A stretch of 64,000 nucleotides of DNA from a phage, in sequence record PZ452582.1; one strand, written 5' to 3'. Under the pieces are notes generated by a model. The model was not told the origin of the DNA and did not search any database. It was given only the letters and a program-made list of their open reading frames with translations. The stretch's first letter is position 1; the number at the start of each line of letters is the position of its first letter. Position numbers and translations under genes: made by a program. This document shows, piece by piece, positions 3,251-56,648 of the stretch.

Positions 3251-3511
3251 GATAATTACGGCGAACTGTTCAACTTCTTTATGAAATGTGTTTCAGAAGA
3301 TTTTGGTCGTACAGTGAATGATATTAAAGTTATCGGTCCTGATCATCCGATGTTTGAAACTTACGCAGTAATGGGTAATGAAGATGGTCAGTGGTATACT
3401 GTAAAGGTTGTGATTAACATGTTCACTGCTGAAGGTTATGTTAAACTGTCTTCTAAAGTTTACCATGATAACGATGAAATCGCAGAAGAATATTTCAATA
3501 ATATGAAATAA
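3248..3511 (+). CDS. hypothetical protein (87 aa)
   Basis: Track ORF starts at TTG 3236; ATG 3248 has SD GGAG 6 nt upstream. Confidence 0.6.
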   Translation: MDNYGELFNFFMKCVSEDFGRTVNDIKVIGPDHPMFETYAVMGNEDGQWYTVKVVINMFTAEGYVKLSSKVYHDNDEIAEEYFNNMK

Positions 3512-3512
3512 G

Positions 3513-3541
3513 TTTACACAGGCTCATGATTGAGATATTAT
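3513..3541 (+). promoter_or_regulatory. early promoter (TTTACA-17-TATTAT) with 8 bp inverted repeat bracketing the -10
   Basis: GTTTAC motif; aggctcat (3520-3527) and atgagcct (3540-3547) flank the -10 hexamer. Confidence 0.6.
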
Positions 3542-3567
3542 GAGCCTATAACTTTGAGGAGAACATT

Positions 3568-3900
3568 ATGAAACGTAACTTTAGTAAAGCTTTTTGTAAT
3601 AGAAATTATTATCCTGAAGAGCTTTTTGAATCTAAGGACTTTAAAGAGTTTAACGAACGTTCTCAAAACATGCCTGTACAATGGGTGTTAGATTATGCCA
3701 AACGTATCTTTGAAGGTGTACGTTGGTTCAGTCCTGATGATGAAGCCCCATATTTTCAAAGGGCATGGTCTATAGTCAATCAAGCTTATATTGATGCTTT
3801 AGAAAATATTAATATTATGGATGATGATGCTTTGTTAATCATCGATGAGTCTATTAATAGTAGTATCGATAAATTTATTGATGAATTGGACGAAGAATAA
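3568..3900 (+). CDS. hypothetical protein (110 aa)
   Basis: ATG with SD gaggag. Confidence 0.65.
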   Translation: MKRNFSKAFCNRNYYPEELFESKDFKEFNERSQNMPVQWVLDYAKRIFEGVRWFSPDDEAPYFQRAWSIVNQAYIDALENINIMDDDALLIIDESINSSIDKFIDELDEE

Positions 3901-3901
3901 G

Positions 3902-3930
3902 TTTACAAACTCTTGGGAGTAGAGTATAAT
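3902..3930 (+). promoter_or_regulatory. early promoter (TTTACA-17-TATAAT) with inverted repeat gggagta/tactccc around the -10
   Basis: Consensus -10 and GTTTAC -35; inverted repeat 3915-3936. Confidence 0.7.
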
Positions 3931-3975
3931 ACTCCCACGGATTATAAAAACCCTTAATTAACTAAAGGAAATGCT

Positions 3976-4569
3976 ATGAACATGCTGAAGAAAATTGTTG
4001 AGTTTATTCGCACTAAACTTGGTTCTGCTATGGCTAAAAATTTATCTGTTGAAGAACAGTATACTGCTGCGGCAGCAAAACTACTTGATAAGATTAAAGA
4101 TCTAAAAACTGCTTCTGTTAAATCTATTAATGAAGAAAAACGTATTCGTGAACTTATTGTCGAAAAGAATCGACAGGCCGAATCAAAAGAGCGTGAAATT
4201 CGCAAGCTTCTTTCTGAAGGTCAAGATGTAACAATGCATGCTAAACTCGGCTTGCTATATCGTCGAACAGCTGAACAGTTGACTACTAAAGCTGATGGTT
4301 ATGCTGAAATGCGAATTGAAATCGCCAAGAAAGTAGTTGAATTGGATGATGCTCGCCAAGAACTTGCAGTTAAATTGGAATATATCCGTGAAACTCGTGC
4401 AGCAAATGCCCTTGGAATTAGTACTGCTGATGATGTAGTTGAAATTGCAGCGCTAACTAAAGTTGATATTGAAGATACTCTCGCCCGAGTTGAAACCTTT
4501 AATGGTAATATTTCTGGGGTTGAAACTACCTCTGCCGATGTTCAGGAATATATTAATTCTCTGAAATAA
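3976..4569 (+). CDS. coiled-coil protein (197 aa), possibly PspA/IM30-like
   Basis: SD aagga; Lys/Glu-rich heptad-like sequence; PspA resemblance is tentative. Confidence 0.6.
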
Positions 4570-50540: not shown

Positions 50541-51968
50541 GTGGTAGAAATTATTCTTTCTCATCTTATATTTGATCAAGCTTATTTTTCAAAAGTTTGG
50601 CCATATATGGATTCAGAATATTTTGAAAGTGGTCCAGCTAAAAATACATTCAAATTAATTAAATCTCATGTCAACGAGTACCATAGCGTTCCATCTATTA
50701 ATGCGTTAAATGTTGCATTAGAAAATAGTTCATTTACTGAAACAGAATATTCTGGTGTAAAAACACTTATTTCAAAACTGGCTGATTCTCCAGAAGACCA
50801 CAGCTGGTTAGTAAAAGAAACAGAAAAATATGTTCAGCAAAGGGCGATGTTTAATGCTACGTCTAAAATAATCGAAATTCAAACTAATGCTGAGCTTCCT
50901 CCGGAAAAACGAAATAAGAAAATGCCGGATGTTGGTGCTATTCCTGACATCATGCGGCAAGCATTATCTATTTCATTTGATAGTTACGTTGGTCATGATT
51001 GGATGGATGACTATGAAGCACGTTGGCTATCTTATATGAATAAAGCTCGTAAAGTTCCATTTAAACTCAGAATTCTAAACAAAATTACTAAAGGCGGAGC
51101 TGAAACAGGAACACTGAACGTTTTAATGGCTGGCGTTAACGTTGGTAAATCATTAGGATTGTGTTCATTAGCGGCAGATTATTTACAGCTCGGACATAAT
51201 GTTCTTTACATTTCCATGGAAATGGCAGAAGAAGTCTGTGCTAAGCGTATTGACGCTAACATGCTTGATGTTTCTCTTGATGACATTGATGATGGGCATA
51301 TTTCTTACGCTGAATATAAAGGAAAAATGGAAAAATGGCGTGAGAAATCTACCCTTGGTCGTTTAATCGTTAAGCAATATCCTACTGGTGGAGCAGACGC
51401 TAATACATTTCGATCACTTTTAAATGAATTAAAGCTCAAGAAGAATTTTGTTCCAACAATCATTATTGTCGACTATCTAGGTATTTGTAAATCTTGCCGC
51501 ATTAGAGTTTATTCAGAAAATAGTTACACAACTGTTAAAGCTATCGCAGAGGAATTGCGTGCTCTGGCTGTTGAAACCGAAACTGTTCTTTGGACTGCAG
51601 CACAGGTTGGTAAACAAGCTTGGGACTCTTCCGATGTTAACATGAGCGATATTGCAGAATCTGCTGGTCTTCCAGCAACAGCTGATTTTATGCTTGCGGT
51701 CATTGAAACCGAGGAGCTAGCAGCTGCTGAACAACAACTCATTAAGCAAATCAAATCACGATATGGTGATAAGAATAAGTGGAATAAGTTTTTGATGGGT
51801 GTTCAAAAAGGAAATCAAAAATGGGTAGAAATTGAACAAGATTCTACTCCAACTGAAGTGAGTGAAGTAGCAGGTTCACAACAGATTCAGGCTGAGCAGA
51901 ATCGCTATCAAAGAAATGAATCCACTCGAGCTCAGTTAGATGCTTTGGCAAATGAATTAAAATTTTAG
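50541..51968 (+). CDS. 41: replicative DNA helicase gp41 (DnaB-like)
   Basis: GTG start with SD aaggag; Walker A GVNVGKS; 475 aa. Confidence 0.95.
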   Translation: MVEIILSHLIFDQAYFSKVWPYMDSEYFESGPAKNTFKLIKSHVNEYHSVPSINALNVALENSSFTETEYSGVKTLISKLADSPEDHSWLVKETEKYVQQRAMFNATSKIIEIQTNAELPPEKRNKKMPDVGAIPDIMRQALSISFDSYVGHDWMDDYEARWLSYMNKARKVPFKLRILNKITKGGAETGTLNVLMAGVNVGKSLGLCSLAADYLQLGHNVLYISMEMAEEVCAKRIDANMLDVSLDDIDDGHISYAEYKGKMEKWREKSTLGRLIVKQYPTGGADANTFRSLLNELKLKKNFVPTIIIVDYLGICKSCRIRVYSENSYTTVKAIAEELRALAVETETVLWTAAQVGKQAWDSSDVNMSDIAESAGLPATADFMLAVIETEELAAAEQQLIKQIKSRYGDKNKWNKFLMGVQKGNQKWVEIEQDSTPTEVSEVAGSQQIQAEQNRYQRNESTRAQLDALANELKF

Positions 51969-51997
51969 TTTACAAGCTGACAAGACTATGGTATAGT
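51969..51997 (+). promoter_or_regulatory. early promoter (TTTACA-17-TATAGT) with inverted repeat caagacta/tagtcttg
   Basis: GTTTAC motif; inverted repeat 51981-52003 around the -10. Confidence 0.6.
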
Positions 51998-52026
51998 AGT
52001 CTTGTTGGTTAAATGAGGAGATTGTT

Positions 52027-52209
52027 ATGGAATTGGTAAAGGTAGTTTTTATGGGGTGGTTTAAGAATGAAAGCATGTTTACTAAAGAAACCACAATGAT
52101 GAAAGATGACGTTCAATGGGCTACTACTCAATATGCTGAAGTTAATAAAGCATTAGTTAAAGCTTTCATTGATGACAAGAAAGTATGTGAAGTAGATTGC
52201 CGAGGATAA
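52027..52209 (+). CDS. dmd: Dmd-like antitoxin (T4 61.5)
   Basis: 60 aa, near-identical to recalled T4 Dmd (MELVKVVFMGWFKNESMF...). Confidence 0.8.
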   Translation: MELVKVVFMGWFKNESMFTKETTMMKDDVQWATTQYAEVNKALVKAFIDDKKVCEVDCRG

Positions 52210-52210
52210 T

Positions 52211-52468
52211 ATGCATATTGTTTTATTTAAACCTACTCCGTATAACGTCAGGAAAAATACGCAATTCAAAGCACTTATTGCAGATACGTGGGAATTGGTG
52301 CTAGATATTCCAACAGAAGAAAGTCCTCCATTTGGTCGAGTGGAATTTATTAAGTTTGCTGTACGTCCTACGAAGAGGCAGATTCGTCAGTGTAAAAGGT
52401 ATTTTCGTAAAATCGTCAAGTTAGAGAAACAGTTTGTAACATGTGATTATGCAGAAGTTTTAAAATAG
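52211..52468 (+). CDS. T4 61.4-like small protein (85 aa)
   Basis: Position and size match T4 61.4 (reported as ToxN inhibitor TifA, from memory). Confidence 0.5.
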   Translation: MHIVLFKPTPYNVRKNTQFKALIADTWELVLDIPTEESPPFGRVEFIKFAVRPTKRQIRQCKRYFRKIVKLEKQFVTCDYAEVLK

Positions 52469-52471
52469 CTG

Positions 52472-52500
52472 TTTACTTTTGTTGGAAATTGAGATACTAT
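52472..52500 (+). promoter_or_regulatory. early promoter (TTTACT-17-TACTAT)
   Basis: GTTTAC motif. Confidence 0.6.
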
Positions 52501-52528
52501 ATAAACATAAACTACTGAGGAGATTATC

Positions 52529-52822
52529 ATGAAAAAATTTATCTTTGCTGCAATTTTTGCTTTAGCTTCTTGTGCTGCTCAGCCTGCTATGGCAGGTTAT
52601 GATAAAGATTTGTGTGAATGGTCTATGACTGCGGATCAGACTGAAGTTGAAACTCAAATTGAAGCGGATATTATGAATATCGTTGAGCGCGATCGTCCTG
52701 AAATGAAAGCTGAAGTGCAAAAACAGCTTAAGTCTGGTGGTGTAATGCAGTATAATTATGTTCTGTATTGCGATAAAAACTTTAATAACAAAAATATCGT
52801 AACCGAAATCACAGGTGAATAA
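52529..52822 (+). CDS. sp: spackle-like periplasmic protein (T4 sp / 61.3)
   Basis: 97 aa with signal peptide MKKFIFAAIFALASCAAQPAMA; matches T4 Sp size and position. Confidence 0.7.
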   Translation: MKKFIFAAIFALASCAAQPAMAGYDKDLCEWSMTADQTEVETQIEADIMNIVERDRPEMKAEVQKQLKSGGVMQYNYVLYCDKNFNNKNIVTEITGE

Positions 52823-53456
52823 TATGATTTATTATATGCACAAAAATCCACCGTTTAAATACGGTAAATTTCCTGATGCACAATGTTATAATATAACGCC
52901 TGATGAAAATAACCGTGGATATCTTATTGGCACAATTTTTGTAATTGTTAAAGATAACGAAATCGTTGCCTGGGCAGATTTTAAAGGTACAACACATGAT
53001 GTTAATCCGGTGCCTTTCACATATTACAATATAATGGATTTGGCATATGATTATAATTGGTTTAATCATGACACGTTGGCTCATATTGAAGGTGTAGGAT
53101 TTGACATCTCTTATTCTAGCTACTCATTGTGTCCTATGAGTCGGGCTCATAAAGAACCTGAATATTTTTCATTTAGGAAACGTGTAAACTTTAAACGCAA
53201 CACAGAGTATGTCGGTGGAATATTTGTTAAAGATAATCGAATTATTCGTATTAATTATCCTTTGAGCGTTAGTCAAAAAGATATTGATGTTGATTTAGAT
53301 TTCACTGAAAATAATATTAATCATATTGCTTCTGTGTATTTTGGTATCGATCACAAAATTGTAATATGTGGATATGAATTACCGTTTGAAGAACAGCCTA
53401 AAGTAAATGTTTCTATTGATGACCAAATTTTTAATGCTTTTATGAATAAAGGTTAA
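52815..53456 (+). CDS. T4 61.2-like protein (213 aa)
   Basis: Position and size match T4 61.2 (reported anti-DarT factor AdfA family, from memory). Confidence 0.5.
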   Translation: MNNMIYYMHKNPPFKYGKFPDAQCYNITPDENNRGYLIGTIFVIVKDNEIVAWADFKGTTHDVNPVPFTYYNIMDLAYDYNWFNHDTLAHIEGVGFDISYSSYSLCPMSRAHKEPEYFSFRKRVNFKRNTEYVGGIFVKDNRIIRINYPLSVSQKDIDVDLDFTENNINHIASVYFGIDHKIVICGYELPFEEQPKVNVSIDDQIFNAFMNKG

Positions 53457-53460
53457 TATG
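53409..53460 (+). repeat. direct repeat copy 1 (gene 3' end plus next start), repeated at 53767-53818
   Basis: tctattgatgaccaaatttttaatgcttttatgaata(a/g)aggttaatatg. Confidence 0.8.
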
Positions 53461-53814
53461 TATAGTTCTGAATTTTCATATTTAAAAATGGAAAAAATTT
53501 CATACGATTTTATAGATGAAAAGGTTTATTACAGTTTCCATGAACCACGTTTTAATAGTGAGGTTGGGTTTATTGTAGTAAAAGACAATTTTATTTTAAA
53601 AATATATTCAGCATTAAAGGATTTTCATTACGAAAATATTAACCTAAAATTTAATAAAGAAAACGTTCGTAATTGCGCAGTAACAATTACGGGAAATAAA
53701 GGTACATGTGTTATGCTATCTGATGAAATTAATGATTTGCTAAATGATGCAGAAAATATTACTGCACCATCTATTGATGACCAAATTTTTAATGCTTTTA
53801 TGAATAGAGGTTAA
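53458..53814 (+). CDS. T4 61.1-like protein (118 aa)
   Basis: C-terminal SIDDQIFNAFMNRG duplicates the tail of the upstream gene. Confidence 0.5.
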   Translation: MYSSEFSYLKMEKISYDFIDEKVYYSFHEPRFNSEVGFIVVKDNFILKIYSALKDFHYENINLKFNKENVRNCAVTITGNKGTCVMLSDEINDLLNDAENITAPSIDDQIFNAFMNRG

Positions 53815-53818
53815 TATG
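53767..53818 (+). repeat. direct repeat copy 2
   Basis: Near-identical to 53409-53460. Confidence 0.8.
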
Positions 53819-53980
53819 AAAACATATAAAGAATTTATCAAAGAAGATATGGTCGCTGGAGATTCAGGTGGTAGTCCTGAAAATATCTCTACTGGAACAA
53901 CGTCAGGCGCTGTAGTAAATAAAGGTCCTGAACAGATTCCTAAAAAGAAAAAAGAGGAATCTAAAGAAAAAGAAGAGTAA
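53816..53980 (+). CDS. small Lys/Glu-rich protein (54 aa) with CTS-like N-terminus
   Basis: MKTYKEFIKE matches the T4 internal-protein capsid targeting sequence; stop 3 nt before gene 61 ATG. Confidence 0.45.
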   Translation: MKTYKEFIKEDMVAGDSGGSPENISTGTTSGAVVNKGPEQIPKKKKEESKEKEE

Positions 53981-53983
53981 AGA

Positions 53984-55012
53984 ATGTCATCAATACCTTG
54001 GATTGATAATGAGTTTGCATACCGTGCATTAGCTCATTTACCTAAATTCACACAAGTAAATAATAGTTCAACTTTTAAATTACGGTTTAGATGCCCTGTT
54101 TGTGGAGATTCAAAAACCGACCAAAATAAAGCCCGTGGATGGTATTATGGTGATAATAATGAAGGAAATATTCATTGTTATAACTGTAACTATCATGCAC
54201 CAATCGGAATATATTTAAAGGAGTTTGAACCTGATTTATATCGTGAGTATATCTTTGAAATAAGAAAAGAAAAAGGTAAAAGTCGTCCAGTAGAAAAACC
54301 TAAAGAACTTCCTAAACAACTTGAGAAGAAAATAATTAAATCTCTTCCGTCATGTGTTAGATTAGATAAACTGGCGGAAGACCATCCAATTATAAAATAT
54401 GTAAAAGCTCGTTGTATTCCAAAGGATAAATGGAAATATCTTTGGTTTACAACCGAATGGCCTAAATTAGTTAATAGCATAGCACCGGGAACATATAAAA
54501 AGGAAATACCTGAGCCTCGTCTTGTTATTCCAATTTATAATGCTAATGGAAAAGCTGAGTCTTTTCAAGGACGTGCATTAAAGAAAGATGCTCCCCAAAA
54601 ATATATCACCATCAAAGCTTATCCTGAAGCAACAAAAATCTATGGAGTCGAACGAGTTAAAGATGGTGATGTATATGTTCTAGAAGGACCTATAGATTCA
54701 CTTTTTATTGAAAATGGTATAGCTATTACGGGTGGTCAATTAGACCTAGAAGTTGTTCCATTTAAAGATAGACGTGTGTGGGTTTTAGATAATGAACCTC
54801 GTCATCCTGACACTATTAAGCGAATGACTAAATTAGTTGATGCAGGAGAAAGGGTTATGTTTTGGGATAAATCTCCCTGGAAATCAAAAGATGTTAATGA
54901 TATGATTAGAAAGGAAGGTGCAACCCCTGAACAAATTATGGAATATATGAAAAATAATATTGCACAGGGGTTGATGGCTAAAATGCGGCTATCTAAATAT
55001 GCCAAGATTTAA
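53984..55012 (+). CDS. 61: DNA primase gp61
   Basis: 342 aa; N-terminal zinc finger CPVCGDS...CYNC; Toprim-like core. Confidence 0.95.
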   Translation: MSSIPWIDNEFAYRALAHLPKFTQVNNSSTFKLRFRCPVCGDSKTDQNKARGWYYGDNNEGNIHCYNCNYHAPIGIYLKEFEPDLYREYIFEIRKEKGKSRPVEKPKELPKQLEKKIIKSLPSCVRLDKLAEDHPIIKYVKARCIPKDKWKYLWFTTEWPKLVNSIAPGTYKKEIPEPRLVIPIYNANGKAESFQGRALKKDAPQKYITIKAYPEATKIYGVERVKDGDVYVLEGPIDSLFIENGIAITGGQLDLEVVPFKDRRVWVLDNEPRHPDTIKRMTKLVDAGERVMFWDKSPWKSKDVNDMIRKEGATPEQIMEYMKNNIAQGLMAKMRLSKYAKI

Positions 55013-55209
55013 ATTAACCCAACTAAAGCAAATGCTAGATCTACGAATGTATCAAGAGTAACCACTGGAATATTAATACCATGTGCAATTGCAATAGGTG
55101 ATAGAATAAAGTTCCAGAGTAAAATTCCTACCATAGCAGAAATAGTAAAAGCTATACGTTTTTTATTACCTTTTATGGCATTAACAAGTGCCATTAATTT
55201 TTGTACCAT
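55009..55209 (-). CDS. small membrane protein (66 aa) on the opposite strand
   Basis: Minus-strand ATG preceded by AAGGAGGA; hydrophobic helices; convergent with gene 61. Confidence 0.5.
   Translation of the reverse strand: MVQKLMALVNAIKGNKKRIAFTISAMVGILLWNFILSPIAIAHGINIPVVTLDTFVDLAFALVGLI

Positions 55210-55308: not shown

Positions 55309-56648
<1,340 letters not shown>

Follow-up and report, generated by a model that had tools for sequence, protein, structure and literature searches.

Gene content of the region between genes 41 and 61

We analysed a stretch of 64,000 nucleotides of phage DNA (PZ452582.1; here called the window), which derives from a Tequatrovirus. Between the gene 41 helicase (50541-51968) and the gene 61 primase (53984-55012), six open reading frames (ORFs) lie on the plus strand in the same order as in RB51. 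The DNA of this 2.2-kb locus is 98.4% identical to that of the deposited phage R5505 and about 97% identical to that of RB51, RB68, wV7 and AR1. The initial annotation had proposed six small genes under two early promoters, and we confirmed all six ORFs, as well as the two promoter-like sites, at the following positions.

51969-51997, plus strand: sigma-70-like early promoter upstream of dmd (TTTACA-17-TATAGT, TG-extended -10)
52027-52209, plus strand: dmd (gene 61.5), 60 aa, predicted RnlA/LsoA toxin inhibitor (Pfam PF17587)
52211-52468, plus strand: tifA (gene 61.4), 85 aa, predicted ToxN protein inhibitor (T4 identity, DUF7279)
52472-52500, plus strand: second promoter-like site, upstream of sp (TTTACT-17-TACTAT)
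52529-52822, plus strand: sp (spackle, 61.3), 97 aa, predicted secreted periplasmic protein (Pfam PF25676)
52824-53456, plus strand: adfA (gene 61.2), 210 aa, predicted anti-DarT factor A (Pfam PF23813)
53458-53814, plus strand: 118-aa ORF, RB32ORF033c/phrog_4122, member of the AdfA-tail family, absent from T4
53816-53980, plus strand: 61.1 orthologue, 54 aa (T4 gp61.1 identity, phrog_1823)

The promoter upstream of dmd matches the sigma-70 consensus at 10 of 12 positions and had the top score in the region. The site upstream of sp matches at only 8 of 12 positions and, because of this score, fell under the listing threshold of the scan. In T4, an early promoter was described 5' of dmd and a further promoter downstream of tifA (Srikant et al., PMC9391042). 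The 41-dmd and tifA-sp spacers of the window each differ from those of T4 by 1 nt, outside the hexamers. Within the cluster, stop codons and the next start codons are separated by gaps of 1-3 nt. An Rfam search of the region at E-values up to 1 returned no RNA element, the sole candidate in a terminator scan of the region lay on the minus strand at chance level, and PADLOC matched none of the six island proteins.

The anti-TA island of T4 (dmd-tifA-sp-adfA-61.1) has the same 41-to-61 position, gene order and promoters as the window, with identities of 94-98% for Dmd, TifA, Sp and 61.1. The window differs from T4 by the extra 118-aa ORF between adfA and 61.1 and by an adfA allele that is 74% identical. 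Loci of the RB51/RB32/wV7/AR1 type share the architecture of the window, including the 118-aa gene, with no substantive difference; in these loci the 118-aa gene carries no annotation beyond "hypothetical protein" or "similar to gp61.2". The study of LeRoux et al. (2022) is reportedly among the published works on the T4 island. The name "anti-TA island" was already given to this region by others (Srikant, Guegler & Laub 2022, PMC9391042; Johannesman et al. 2024, PMC11257639).

dmd, tifA and sp closely resemble their T4 orthologues

Dmd gave a full-length match to PF17587 (1.8e-45, 153.5 bits, cut-off 27) and is identical to T4 Dmd at 59 of 60 residues, the sole substitution being I22T. The gene is preceded by the Shine-Dalgarno sequence GAGGAG. 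Since dmd was shown to inhibit RnlA (PMC9391042; PMC11257639), the 98% identity to T4 suggests that the Dmd of this phage would bind and neutralise RnlA/LsoA.

As in the T4 architecture, tifA lies directly downstream of dmd, its start being 2 nt past the dmd stop. TifA is identical to T4 gp61.4 at 83 of 85 residues (changes A35T and I83L), matches DUF7279 (3.1e-20), and carries a basic central cluster, RPTKRQIRQCKRYFRK, that is exactly that of T4. Gene 61.4 was renamed tifA and its product inhibits ToxN; its architecture, including the central basic cluster, was described in the same work (PMC9391042).

The product of sp matches T4_Spackle (PF25676; 1.5e-45, 154.2 bits) and is identical to T4 Spackle at 91 of 97 residues, with six changes. 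Its N-terminus resembles a signal peptide, MKKFIFAAIFALASCAAQPAMA, ending in AMA. Spackle is a periplasmic superinfection-exclusion and lysis-inhibition protein rather than a toxin-antitoxin or abortive-infection (TA/Abi) inhibitor. The description of the island genes as TA/Abi-inhibitor-type in the initial annotation thus holds for Dmd, TifA and AdfA but does not apply to Spackle, and it is not supported for 61.1, which has no known function. The labels it had given to Dmd, 61.4, spackle and 61.2 were right by Pfam (PF17587, DUF7279, PF25676 and PF23813, respectively), and the activities it had given for Dmd (RnlA/LsoA), 61.4 (ToxN) and 61.2 (DarT) agree with the literature (PMC9391042, PMC11257639).

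The adfA allele is divergent from that of T4

The frame ending at 53456 encodes 213 aa when read from a GTG at 52815 and 210 aa when read from an ATG at 52824. The ATG is most likely the start of adfA, because an AGGTG Shine-Dalgarno sequence lies 5 nt upstream and both the alignment with the T4 start and the RB51 annotation agree with it; the GTG lacks a Shine-Dalgarno sequence. Residues 1-210 of the product cover positions 1-211 of the PF23813 profile (6.4e-138, 457.4 bits against 27). AdfA is 74% identical to its T4 counterpart and identical to that of RB51 at 209 of 210 residues, and its N-terminal ~55 residues are RB69-like. The synonymous divergence of adfA from T4 is likewise high (dS 0.50, against 0.03-0.22 for the neighbouring genes). 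In the AF2 model (pLDDT 72.8), two tandem beta-meander-plus-helix domains are predicted, followed by a flexible C-terminal tail.

Gene 61.2 was identified as adfA, which counters DarT (PMC9391042; PMC11257639), and deletion of adfA from T4 had no phenotype (PMC11257639). Residue 164 was shown to set DarT1 specificity, His marking the allele that binds and neutralises DarT1 (PMC11257639). At the position corresponding to RB69 residue 164, the AdfA of the window carries His and not Arg (TENNINHIASVYF, compared to TENNINRIASVYF in RB69). On the basis of the published work and of the 74% identity to T4, this allele is predicted to neutralise DarT1.

An additional 118-aa gene lies between adfA and 61.1

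Two labels of the initial annotation had to be revised. The 54-aa ORF, which had been set apart as a "CTS mini-ORF", is the 61.1 orthologue: it lies directly upstream of primase gene 61, is identical to T4 gp61.1 at 51 of 54 residues (three changes) and matches phrog_1823 (2.4e-33), with zero Pfam matches. The 118-aa ORF, which had been called 61.1-like, is instead RB32ORF033c, a gene that is missing in T4 and annotated as "similar to gp61.2" in RB51. It matches phrog_4122 (4.4e-72) and, over profile positions 113-211 only, the Pfam AdfA profile (8.8e-8, 32.2 bits against 27).

The 118-aa ORF has its own Shine-Dalgarno sequence. Its product is identical to that of RB51 at 112 of 118 residues and 100% identical in ZCEC14, DalCa, ESh24, FL08 and AV119. 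The ORF occurs in 337 phage records, and in 294 of these the identity is at least 90%; its presence is polymorphic among close relatives. Orthologues of 44-48% identity occur in Gaprivervirus and Yersinia phage P8, and in T2, sb3 and G3F6 the 118-aa type is the sole family member, AdfA being missing. With dN/dS values of 0.14 relative to RB51 and 0.28 relative to Sf21, and dS of up to 0.45, the substitution pattern indicates a real gene under purifying selection. The AF2 model (pLDDT 82, and >90 over residues 20-90) predicts a single beta5-alpha domain plus a tail.

We compared the 118-aa protein with AdfA. Both occupy the same slot, both end in the same 14 residues except for K209 in AdfA and R117 in the 118-aa protein, and both contain a VG-I-VKDN-I hairpin motif. 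For both, five beta strands and a helix are predicted in the same order, in two domains in AdfA (~210 aa) and in one domain in the 118-aa protein; the two AF2 models share overlapping alignments and are thus not independent. Once the tail was removed, the similarity of the 118-aa protein to AdfA was not significant, either by BLASTP (E 0.08-0.24) or by hhalign (P ~0.002, probability 15%). We therefore downgraded the notion that the AdfA C-domain has a clear paralogue in the 118-aa ORF: a paralogous relationship would rest on the tail, the VKDN hairpin, the predicted topology and the slot. In a MAFFT alignment, which is of low confidence in this segment, the 118-aa protein has Asn where AdfA has His/Arg164.

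Evidence on the target of the 118-aa protein comes from T2, in which deletion of adfN was shown to cause a 10^4-fold sensitivity to DarTG1 (PMC11257639). Since T2 carries the 118-aa gene without AdfA and is sensitive to DarTG1 without adfN, the 118-aa protein at its native level does not neutralise that DarT1. Its target is probably something other than the DarT1 assayed to date. As to nomenclature, T2 was published as "lacking adfA", yet GenBank calls its gene of the 118-aa type "61.2".

A conserved C-terminal tail and 49-nt direct repeats

The 210-aa and 118-aa proteins share the tail S-I/V-DDQIFNAFM-N/K-R/K-G/D, of which DDQIFNAFM is invariant in AdfA, in the 118-aa type and in a 145-aa type. 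Five of the six invariant columns in an alignment of 37 sequences fall within this tail, which is the best-conserved feature across the family. Its synonymous sites vary among genera (GAT/GAC, CAA/CAG, GCT/GCC/GCA, TTT/TTC, AGA/CGA). Comparison of these sequences thus indicates conservation at the peptide level across the three protein types found after sp. AF2 places the tail in a short helix (pLDDT ~52-64) behind a linker with pLDDT <50, so that it is apparently flexible and amphipathic in the models. The published T4 ΔadfA allele (61.2Δ65-196) retains the tail, and that deletion therefore does not probe tail-dependent function.

At the DNA level, the two tails of the window are part of direct repeats of 49 nt, the copies of which are identical at 48 of 49 positions and spaced by 358 nt, that is, by one unit:

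53412-53460, plus strand: direct repeat copy 1, AdfA tail SIDDQIFNAFMNKG, stop, Shine-Dalgarno sequence and ATG of the next gene
53770-53818, plus strand: direct repeat copy 2, tail of the 118-aa protein SIDDQIFNAFMNRG, stop, Shine-Dalgarno sequence and ATG of 61.1

The adfA/61.1 junction of T4 (AGA GGT TAA T ATGAAAACAT) equals repeat copy 2 except for one base inside 61.1. The penultimate K/R residue of the tail was considered as proof that T4 has lost the 118-aa ORF and was rejected, since RB69 AdfA also ends in MNRG; for such a loss we retained the exact one-unit geometry as the only evidence.

The slot after sp is filled by a divergent family in T-even phages

sp is immediately followed by a gene of this family in Tequatrovirus, Mosigvirus, Gaprivervirus and Yersinia phage P8, as well as on two T-even contigs from metagenomes, and the position of the slot was conserved at the six other loci checked. 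The bodies of the proteins are highly divergent and come as 116-125 aa, as 144-148 aa or as the two-domain, 210-aa AdfA. In Gaprivervirus, a tandem pair of family genes follows sp. The 144-148-aa and 116-119-aa proteins of Gaprivervirus/Dhakavirus (DK-13, ECML-359, JS10, Bp7, WG01) occupy the slot of the window and have the invariant tail, with bodies 20-48% identical to the 118-aa protein. A profile HMM searched against 1.84 billion representatives recovered seven real clusters, all from T-even phages. Two further long but weak matches, P0073 and P0074, correspond to BACON and TAL-repeat proteins, and we regarded them as spurious. The family profile gave no significant match to PDB sequences. 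By these searches, the family appears restricted to T-even phages, where it fills the slot right after sp.

A T4-type anti-TA island with an additional candidate inhibitor

Taken together, we consider it highly probable that the locus is the published T4-type anti-TA island with an extra 118-aa gene of the tail family, likely encoding a toxin or defence inhibitor. Immediately on infection, the two early promoters would drive dmd-tifA and sp-adfA-ORF118-61.1, with tight translational coupling through the 1-3 nt stop-start gaps. Dmd would bind and block the RnlA/LsoA RNases and TifA the ToxN RNase, AdfA (here the His164 allele) would bind the DarT1 DNA ADP-ribosyltransferase, and Spackle would be exported to the periplasm. 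These island functions were shown for T4/RB69 in the literature; here they are expected from identities of 94-98%, and of 74% for AdfA. The 118-aa protein is most likely a further inhibitor that binds a toxin or defence component. Its choice of target would depend on the variable body, and the tail would provide a family-wide function, for example by docking to a shared partner or acting as an inhibitory peptide.

More tentatively, the whole slot after sp may house a hypervariable family in which diversifying bodies recognise different toxins or defences, the tail is a portable peptide of 12-14 residues and the 49-nt repeat is a recombination joint, the 118-aa protein being a new anti-defence factor. 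The portable tail could, for example, dock to one partner, of phage or host, shared by the family, or plug a conserved target site, and the repeat joint would allow cassettes to be added, removed or swapped, giving rise to the configurations of T4, the window, T2 and Gaprivervirus.

It seems unlikely that the tail family, including AdfA, consists primarily of replisome accessory proteins whose tail docks to one shared replication protein of phage or host (clamp, SSB/gp32, helicase or primase). The body would thereby be brought to the replication fork, the site of ssDNA modification by DarT, and binding of toxins would be one of its uses. Such a role is consistent with the family genes lying between the genes for helicase 41 and primase 61 in all genera examined and with an invariant, acidic-then-aromatic amphipathic tail on a flexible linker. 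The clamp-binding peptides of T4 (gp43 SLDFLFG, gp55 tail) are alike in general style, and the gp43 of the window likewise ends in SLDFLFG, but the spacing of the tail is off the SLDFL[FY] motif. The tail also misfits the bacterial QL[SD]LF motif, and clamp binding was kept only as a rival of low probability. In addition, the tail is not at the extreme C-terminus, unlike an SSB-tip mimic. Within a genome, the two tails have their codon usage and the N/K variant in common, which would fit such a role; gene conversion explains the shared codon usage equally well.

The initial annotation had proposed that differences from T4 mark altered anti-defence specificities. For Dmd, TifA, Sp and 61.1 we regard this as very improbable. 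Small changes do exist (I22T in Dmd, A35T and I83L in TifA, six in Sp, three in 61.1), and TifA homologues were shown to vary in potency, but this was shown at 56% identity (RB69; PMC9391042). Dmd and TifA have one or two conservative changes each, dN/dS values of 0.05-0.22 are typical of purifying selection, and the TifA proteins of T2, T4 and T6, termed "nearly identical", behave in the same manner (PMC9391042). Alignment to T4 thus revealed near-identity for Dmd, TifA and 61.1, speaking against the proposal; it is reasonable only for AdfA, which is 74% identical and keeps His164, and for the 118-aa gene.

It is also very unlikely that the 118-aa ORF is a decaying partial adfA duplicate that arose without function when the 49-nt repeats recombined: the near-identical repeats flank it exactly one unit apart, T4 resembles the same locus minus one unit and its presence is polymorphic in close relatives, but decay is at odds with its dN/dS of 0.14-0.28 at dS of up to 0.45, its intact state in about 300 genomes, its retention alone where adfA is missing (T2, sb3, G3F6), its 44-48% orthologues in Gaprivervirus and Yersinia phage P8, and the compact fold predicted confidently at residues 20-90.

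Significance of the locus

The island is an already known system, nearly identical to that of hundreds of sequenced phages, and the window adds little to it, because the counter-defence island is published and the phage is ~98% identical to sequenced isolates. The 118-aa ORF is one uncharacterised member of modest interest. When genotype is related to DarTG sensitivity, the AdfA and 118-aa types should be kept separate. Defence-library screens could include the 118-aa gene at low cost as a well-defined candidate.

Layout of the island

The window derives from a Tequatrovirus, a T4-like phage. Its 2.2-kb segment at 51900-54100 is matched by 665 phage records, led by vB_EcoM_R5505 (98.4% identity), and the group of RB51, RB68, wV7 and AR1 shows ~97% identity to it. 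We drew the gene order of the published anti-TA island from the ORF listing and the annotations of RB51 and T4.

Genes of the island and its flanks (identities are to T4)
upstream of 41: uvsX and 40
50541-51968: 41, helicase; gp41 474/475 identical
52027-52209, + strand: dmd; Pfam Dmd, 1.8e-45; 59/60 identical
52211-52468, + strand: 61.4 (tifA); Pfam DUF7279, 3.1e-20; gp61.4 83/85 identical
52529-52822, + strand: sp; Pfam T4_Spackle, 1.5e-45; Sp 91/97 identical
52824-53456, + strand: 61.2 (adfA); Pfam AdfA, 6.4e-138, full length; gp61.2 157/211 (74%)
53458-53814, + strand: 118-aa ORF (ORF118); RB51 RB32ORF033c; phrog_4122
53816-53980, + strand: 61.1; gp61.1 51/54 identical
53984-55012: 61, primase; gp61 338/342 identical

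All six small genes lie on the + strand, each preceded by a Shine-Dalgarno sequence, with 1 to 3 nt from stop to start (2 to 3 intervening bases), the start of sp excepted. The ORF listing and the RB51 and T4 annotations confirmed the coordinates of the initial annotation, which had described the six ORFs essentially correctly. Two of its labels were wrong. The 54-aa "CTS mini-ORF" is, by its identity to T4 gp61.1, 61.1 itself; the 118-aa ORF is not "61.1-like". It is missing from T4, is listed in the RB51 annotation as "similar to gp61.2" and falls into phrog_4122 of PHROGs. A 213-aa reading of 61.2 is less likely, as its GTG start overlaps sp and lacks a Shine-Dalgarno sequence; the ATG at 52824 (210 aa), preceded by AGGTG, coincides with the starts in T4 and RB51.

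Promoter 1 (51969-51997, TTTACA-17-TATAGT) was the best match of the sigma-70 scan. A second promoter-like site (52472-52500, TTTACT-17-TACTAT) agrees with the consensus at only 8 of 12 positions, too few to be listed by that scan. In each of the two intergenic regions a single base, not in the hexamers, separates the window from T4; in T4, an early promoter precedes dmd and another promoter follows tifA (PMC9391042). An Rfam search of the region matched no family, and a terminator search found none convincing. The leaders of dmd (52014-52032, TGAGGAGATTGTTATGGAA) and sp (52516-52534, TGAGGAGATTATCATGAAA) are near-identical, each ~20-25 nt downstream of its own early promoter, and the Shine-Dalgarno sequences of both contain GGAG. 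In early mRNAs, T4 RegB cleaves at GGAG.

Several features were observed around these genes. gp61.1 is built of a conserved module of ~45 residues, in which DMVAGDSGGxPxxIxxGTTxGAVVNKGPEQIP leads into a lysine-rich end; in RB69 (3318-3596) the module follows a 45-residue N-terminal extension, and in phrog_2086 (156 aa) it is C-terminal. A 66-aa ORF (55009-55209, - strand; RB32ORF030w/RB69ORF029w, phrog_2024), convergent with primase gene 61 and overlapping its last 4 nt, is a predicted membrane protein in the Sf21 annotation; its conservation extends from RB69 to Tequatrovirus, and it is missing from the T4 annotation. A 186-aa ORF (55309-55869, + strand; phrog_8706; GC content low, 0.24-0.29) lies directly upstream of dam (55869-56648), its stop overlapping the dam start. 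A total of 164 phage records contain it, T2 among them, and all label it "hypothetical"; at this site T4 shows just a ~310-bp gap, and RB51 has no dam there. Its hits to type II restriction endonucleases are weak: PADLOC REase_II (E 8.5e-5) aligns residues 16-109 with positions 149-239 of a 290-position profile, and Pfam DpnII scored under its cut-off (E 0.004). A PDB sequence search found no match. This ORF may be what is left of a GATC-type nuclease, or a partner of the phage Dam.

Differences from T4

The functions that the initial annotation gave for Dmd, TifA and AdfA agree with Srikant et al. (PMC9391042) and Johannesman et al. 2024 (PMC11257639). Its description of the island as TA/Abi inhibitors stands for these three and not for Spackle and 61.1, for which no TA/Abi inhibition is known. 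It had further proposed that differences from T4 mark altered specificities. Dmd (I22T) and TifA (A35T, I83L) carry few substitutions, with dN/dS versus T4 of 0.05-0.21, and nothing suggests a changed specificity; adfA is the sole strongly divergent allele, with dS 0.50 and dN 0.15 against T4, versus dS ≤0.22 in neighboring genes. The N-terminal ~55 residues of AdfA are of RB69 type (KFPDAQCYNITPDENN...), a part in which T4 is very different, and the C-terminal domain is conserved in T4 and RB69, with His at RB69 position 164. His at this residue allows DarT1 binding and Arg, as in RB69, does not (Johannesman et al. 2024, PMC11257639). Being 209/210 identical to RB51 and 99.5% to wV7, the window AdfA is an allelic mosaic that is already widespread in databases. 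Its AF2 model (pLDDT 72.8) comprises two tandem beta-meander-plus-helix domains and, beyond a linker (pLDDT <50 at residues 191-196, inside a low-confidence stretch at 181-196), a tail helix (198-207).

ORF118 and its relation to AdfA

ORF118 is a real gene. It is found in 337 phage records, in 294 at ≥90% identity and in several at 100%, and its dN/dS is 0.14 versus RB51 and 0.28 versus Sf21, with dS up to 0.45. AF2 predicted a compact fold (mean pLDDT 82, pTM 0.73) of five antiparallel strands (residues 9-64), two helices (67-78, 89-98), a flexible linker (99-107) and a last helix (108-115, pLDDT ~52).

With its last 14 residues included, ORF118 matches AdfA residues 111-210 by BLASTP (E 3e-10), and it scores 32.2 bits against Pfam AdfA (cut-off 27); without those residues, the BLASTP E value is only 0.08-0.24. 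The two bodies compared profile to profile gave P ~0.002 and 15% probability. Both proteins have the tail and a VG-I-VKDN-I hairpin motif, which AdfA contains twice, and their predicted secondary structure follows one order. Judged on these comparisons, the relation is real but narrow, with marginal similarity of the bodies.

In phage T2 (LC348380.1, 3037-3392, minus strand), a 108-aa "61.2" is annotated; an upstream in-frame ATG extends it to the full 118 aa, and so read it is 98% identical to ORF118 of the window. By sequence, the T2 "61.2" is an ORF118-type protein and not AdfA, so that the GenBank label no longer conflicts with published work in which T2 lacks adfA.

A shared tail and an exchangeable slot

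The 3' ends of adfA and ORF118 form a 49-nt direct repeat, its copies 48/49 identical and 358 nt apart, coding for SIDDQIFNAFMN(K/R)G and a stop, followed by the Shine-Dalgarno sequence and ATG of the next gene. A third type of protein, 144-148 aa long and ending in this tail peptide, occupies the place of AdfA in Gaprivervirus, Dhakavirus and Yersinia phage P8, and a 116-119-aa ORF118 orthologue follows it there. Across genera the tail codons vary synonymously (GAT/GAC, CAA/CAG, GCT/GCC/GCA, TTT/TTC, AGA/CGA) and DDQIFNAFM is invariant, indicating selection on the peptide and not on the DNA joint alone. The two copies within one genome have codon choices in common, a sign of concerted evolution or gene conversion. 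A 37-sequence alignment has six invariant columns, five of them in the tail. Searched with a profile, 1.84 billion representative proteins yielded 7 clusters of the family, all from T-even-type phages, and a PDB sequence search found no solved structure for the family.

Gene content of the slot after sp
AdfA alone: T4
AdfA and ORF118: window, RB51, Sf21
ORF118 alone: sb3, G3F6, phage T2
145-aa and 117-aa pair: Gaprivervirus, P8
single 120-125-aa member: metagenomic contigs

The adfA/61.1 junction of T4 equals the ORF118/61.1 junction of the window but for one base inside 61.1; T4 thus corresponds to the window locus minus exactly one repeat unit. In the ORF118-only phages sb3 (1861-1875), G3F6 and T2, TTAGAGGTTAGTATG is kept directly after the sp stop. 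The sequence is similar to the end of the tail repeat, from its last codons through stop and start (AGAGGTTAATATG), and seems to be a remnant of the tail's end, which suggests that adfA was lost in these phages by a deletion ending inside the repeat. RB69 (3804-4001), Gaprivervirus and P8 have a further small cassette of 63-65 aa (M..A.CTGSKISVF...GDKAIFV), placed between 61.1 and the AdfA-family gene and seen at 2507-2698 in DK-13; the window and T4 lack it. Its distribution adds to the evidence for a slot between sp and 61.1 in which genes are swapped in and out.

Possible role of ORF118

Dmd, TifA and AdfA, made early, have been shown elsewhere to neutralize RnlA/LsoA, ToxN and DarT1 by direct binding, and by their identity the window proteins would do the same. 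The experiment that bears on ORF118 gives indirect, negative evidence: in T2, which has ORF118 and lacks AdfA, deletion of adfN causes a four-log plating loss on DarTG1 (PMC11257639). At native level, ORF118 thus fails against that DarT1, and T4's own AdfA is in the same position. Deleting adfA from T4 gives no phenotype, since the chief factor against DarTG1 is AdfN (gp30.3) (PMC11257639). The published ΔadfA allele is 61.2Δ65-196 (PMC11257639). By the T4 sequence it keeps residues 197-208, DDQIFNAFMNRG, so that a tail-specific function was never removed.

We also considered the tail as a replisome-docking peptide, an unlikely reading; the tails by which gp43 and gp55 of the window bind gp45 do not match the AdfA-family tail. 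The locus is a published, widely sequenced system, in which the 118-aa tail-family gene is the only uncharacterized element. Most likely, ORF118 would be another binding-type inhibitor with a different target, its tail serving a function common to the family.
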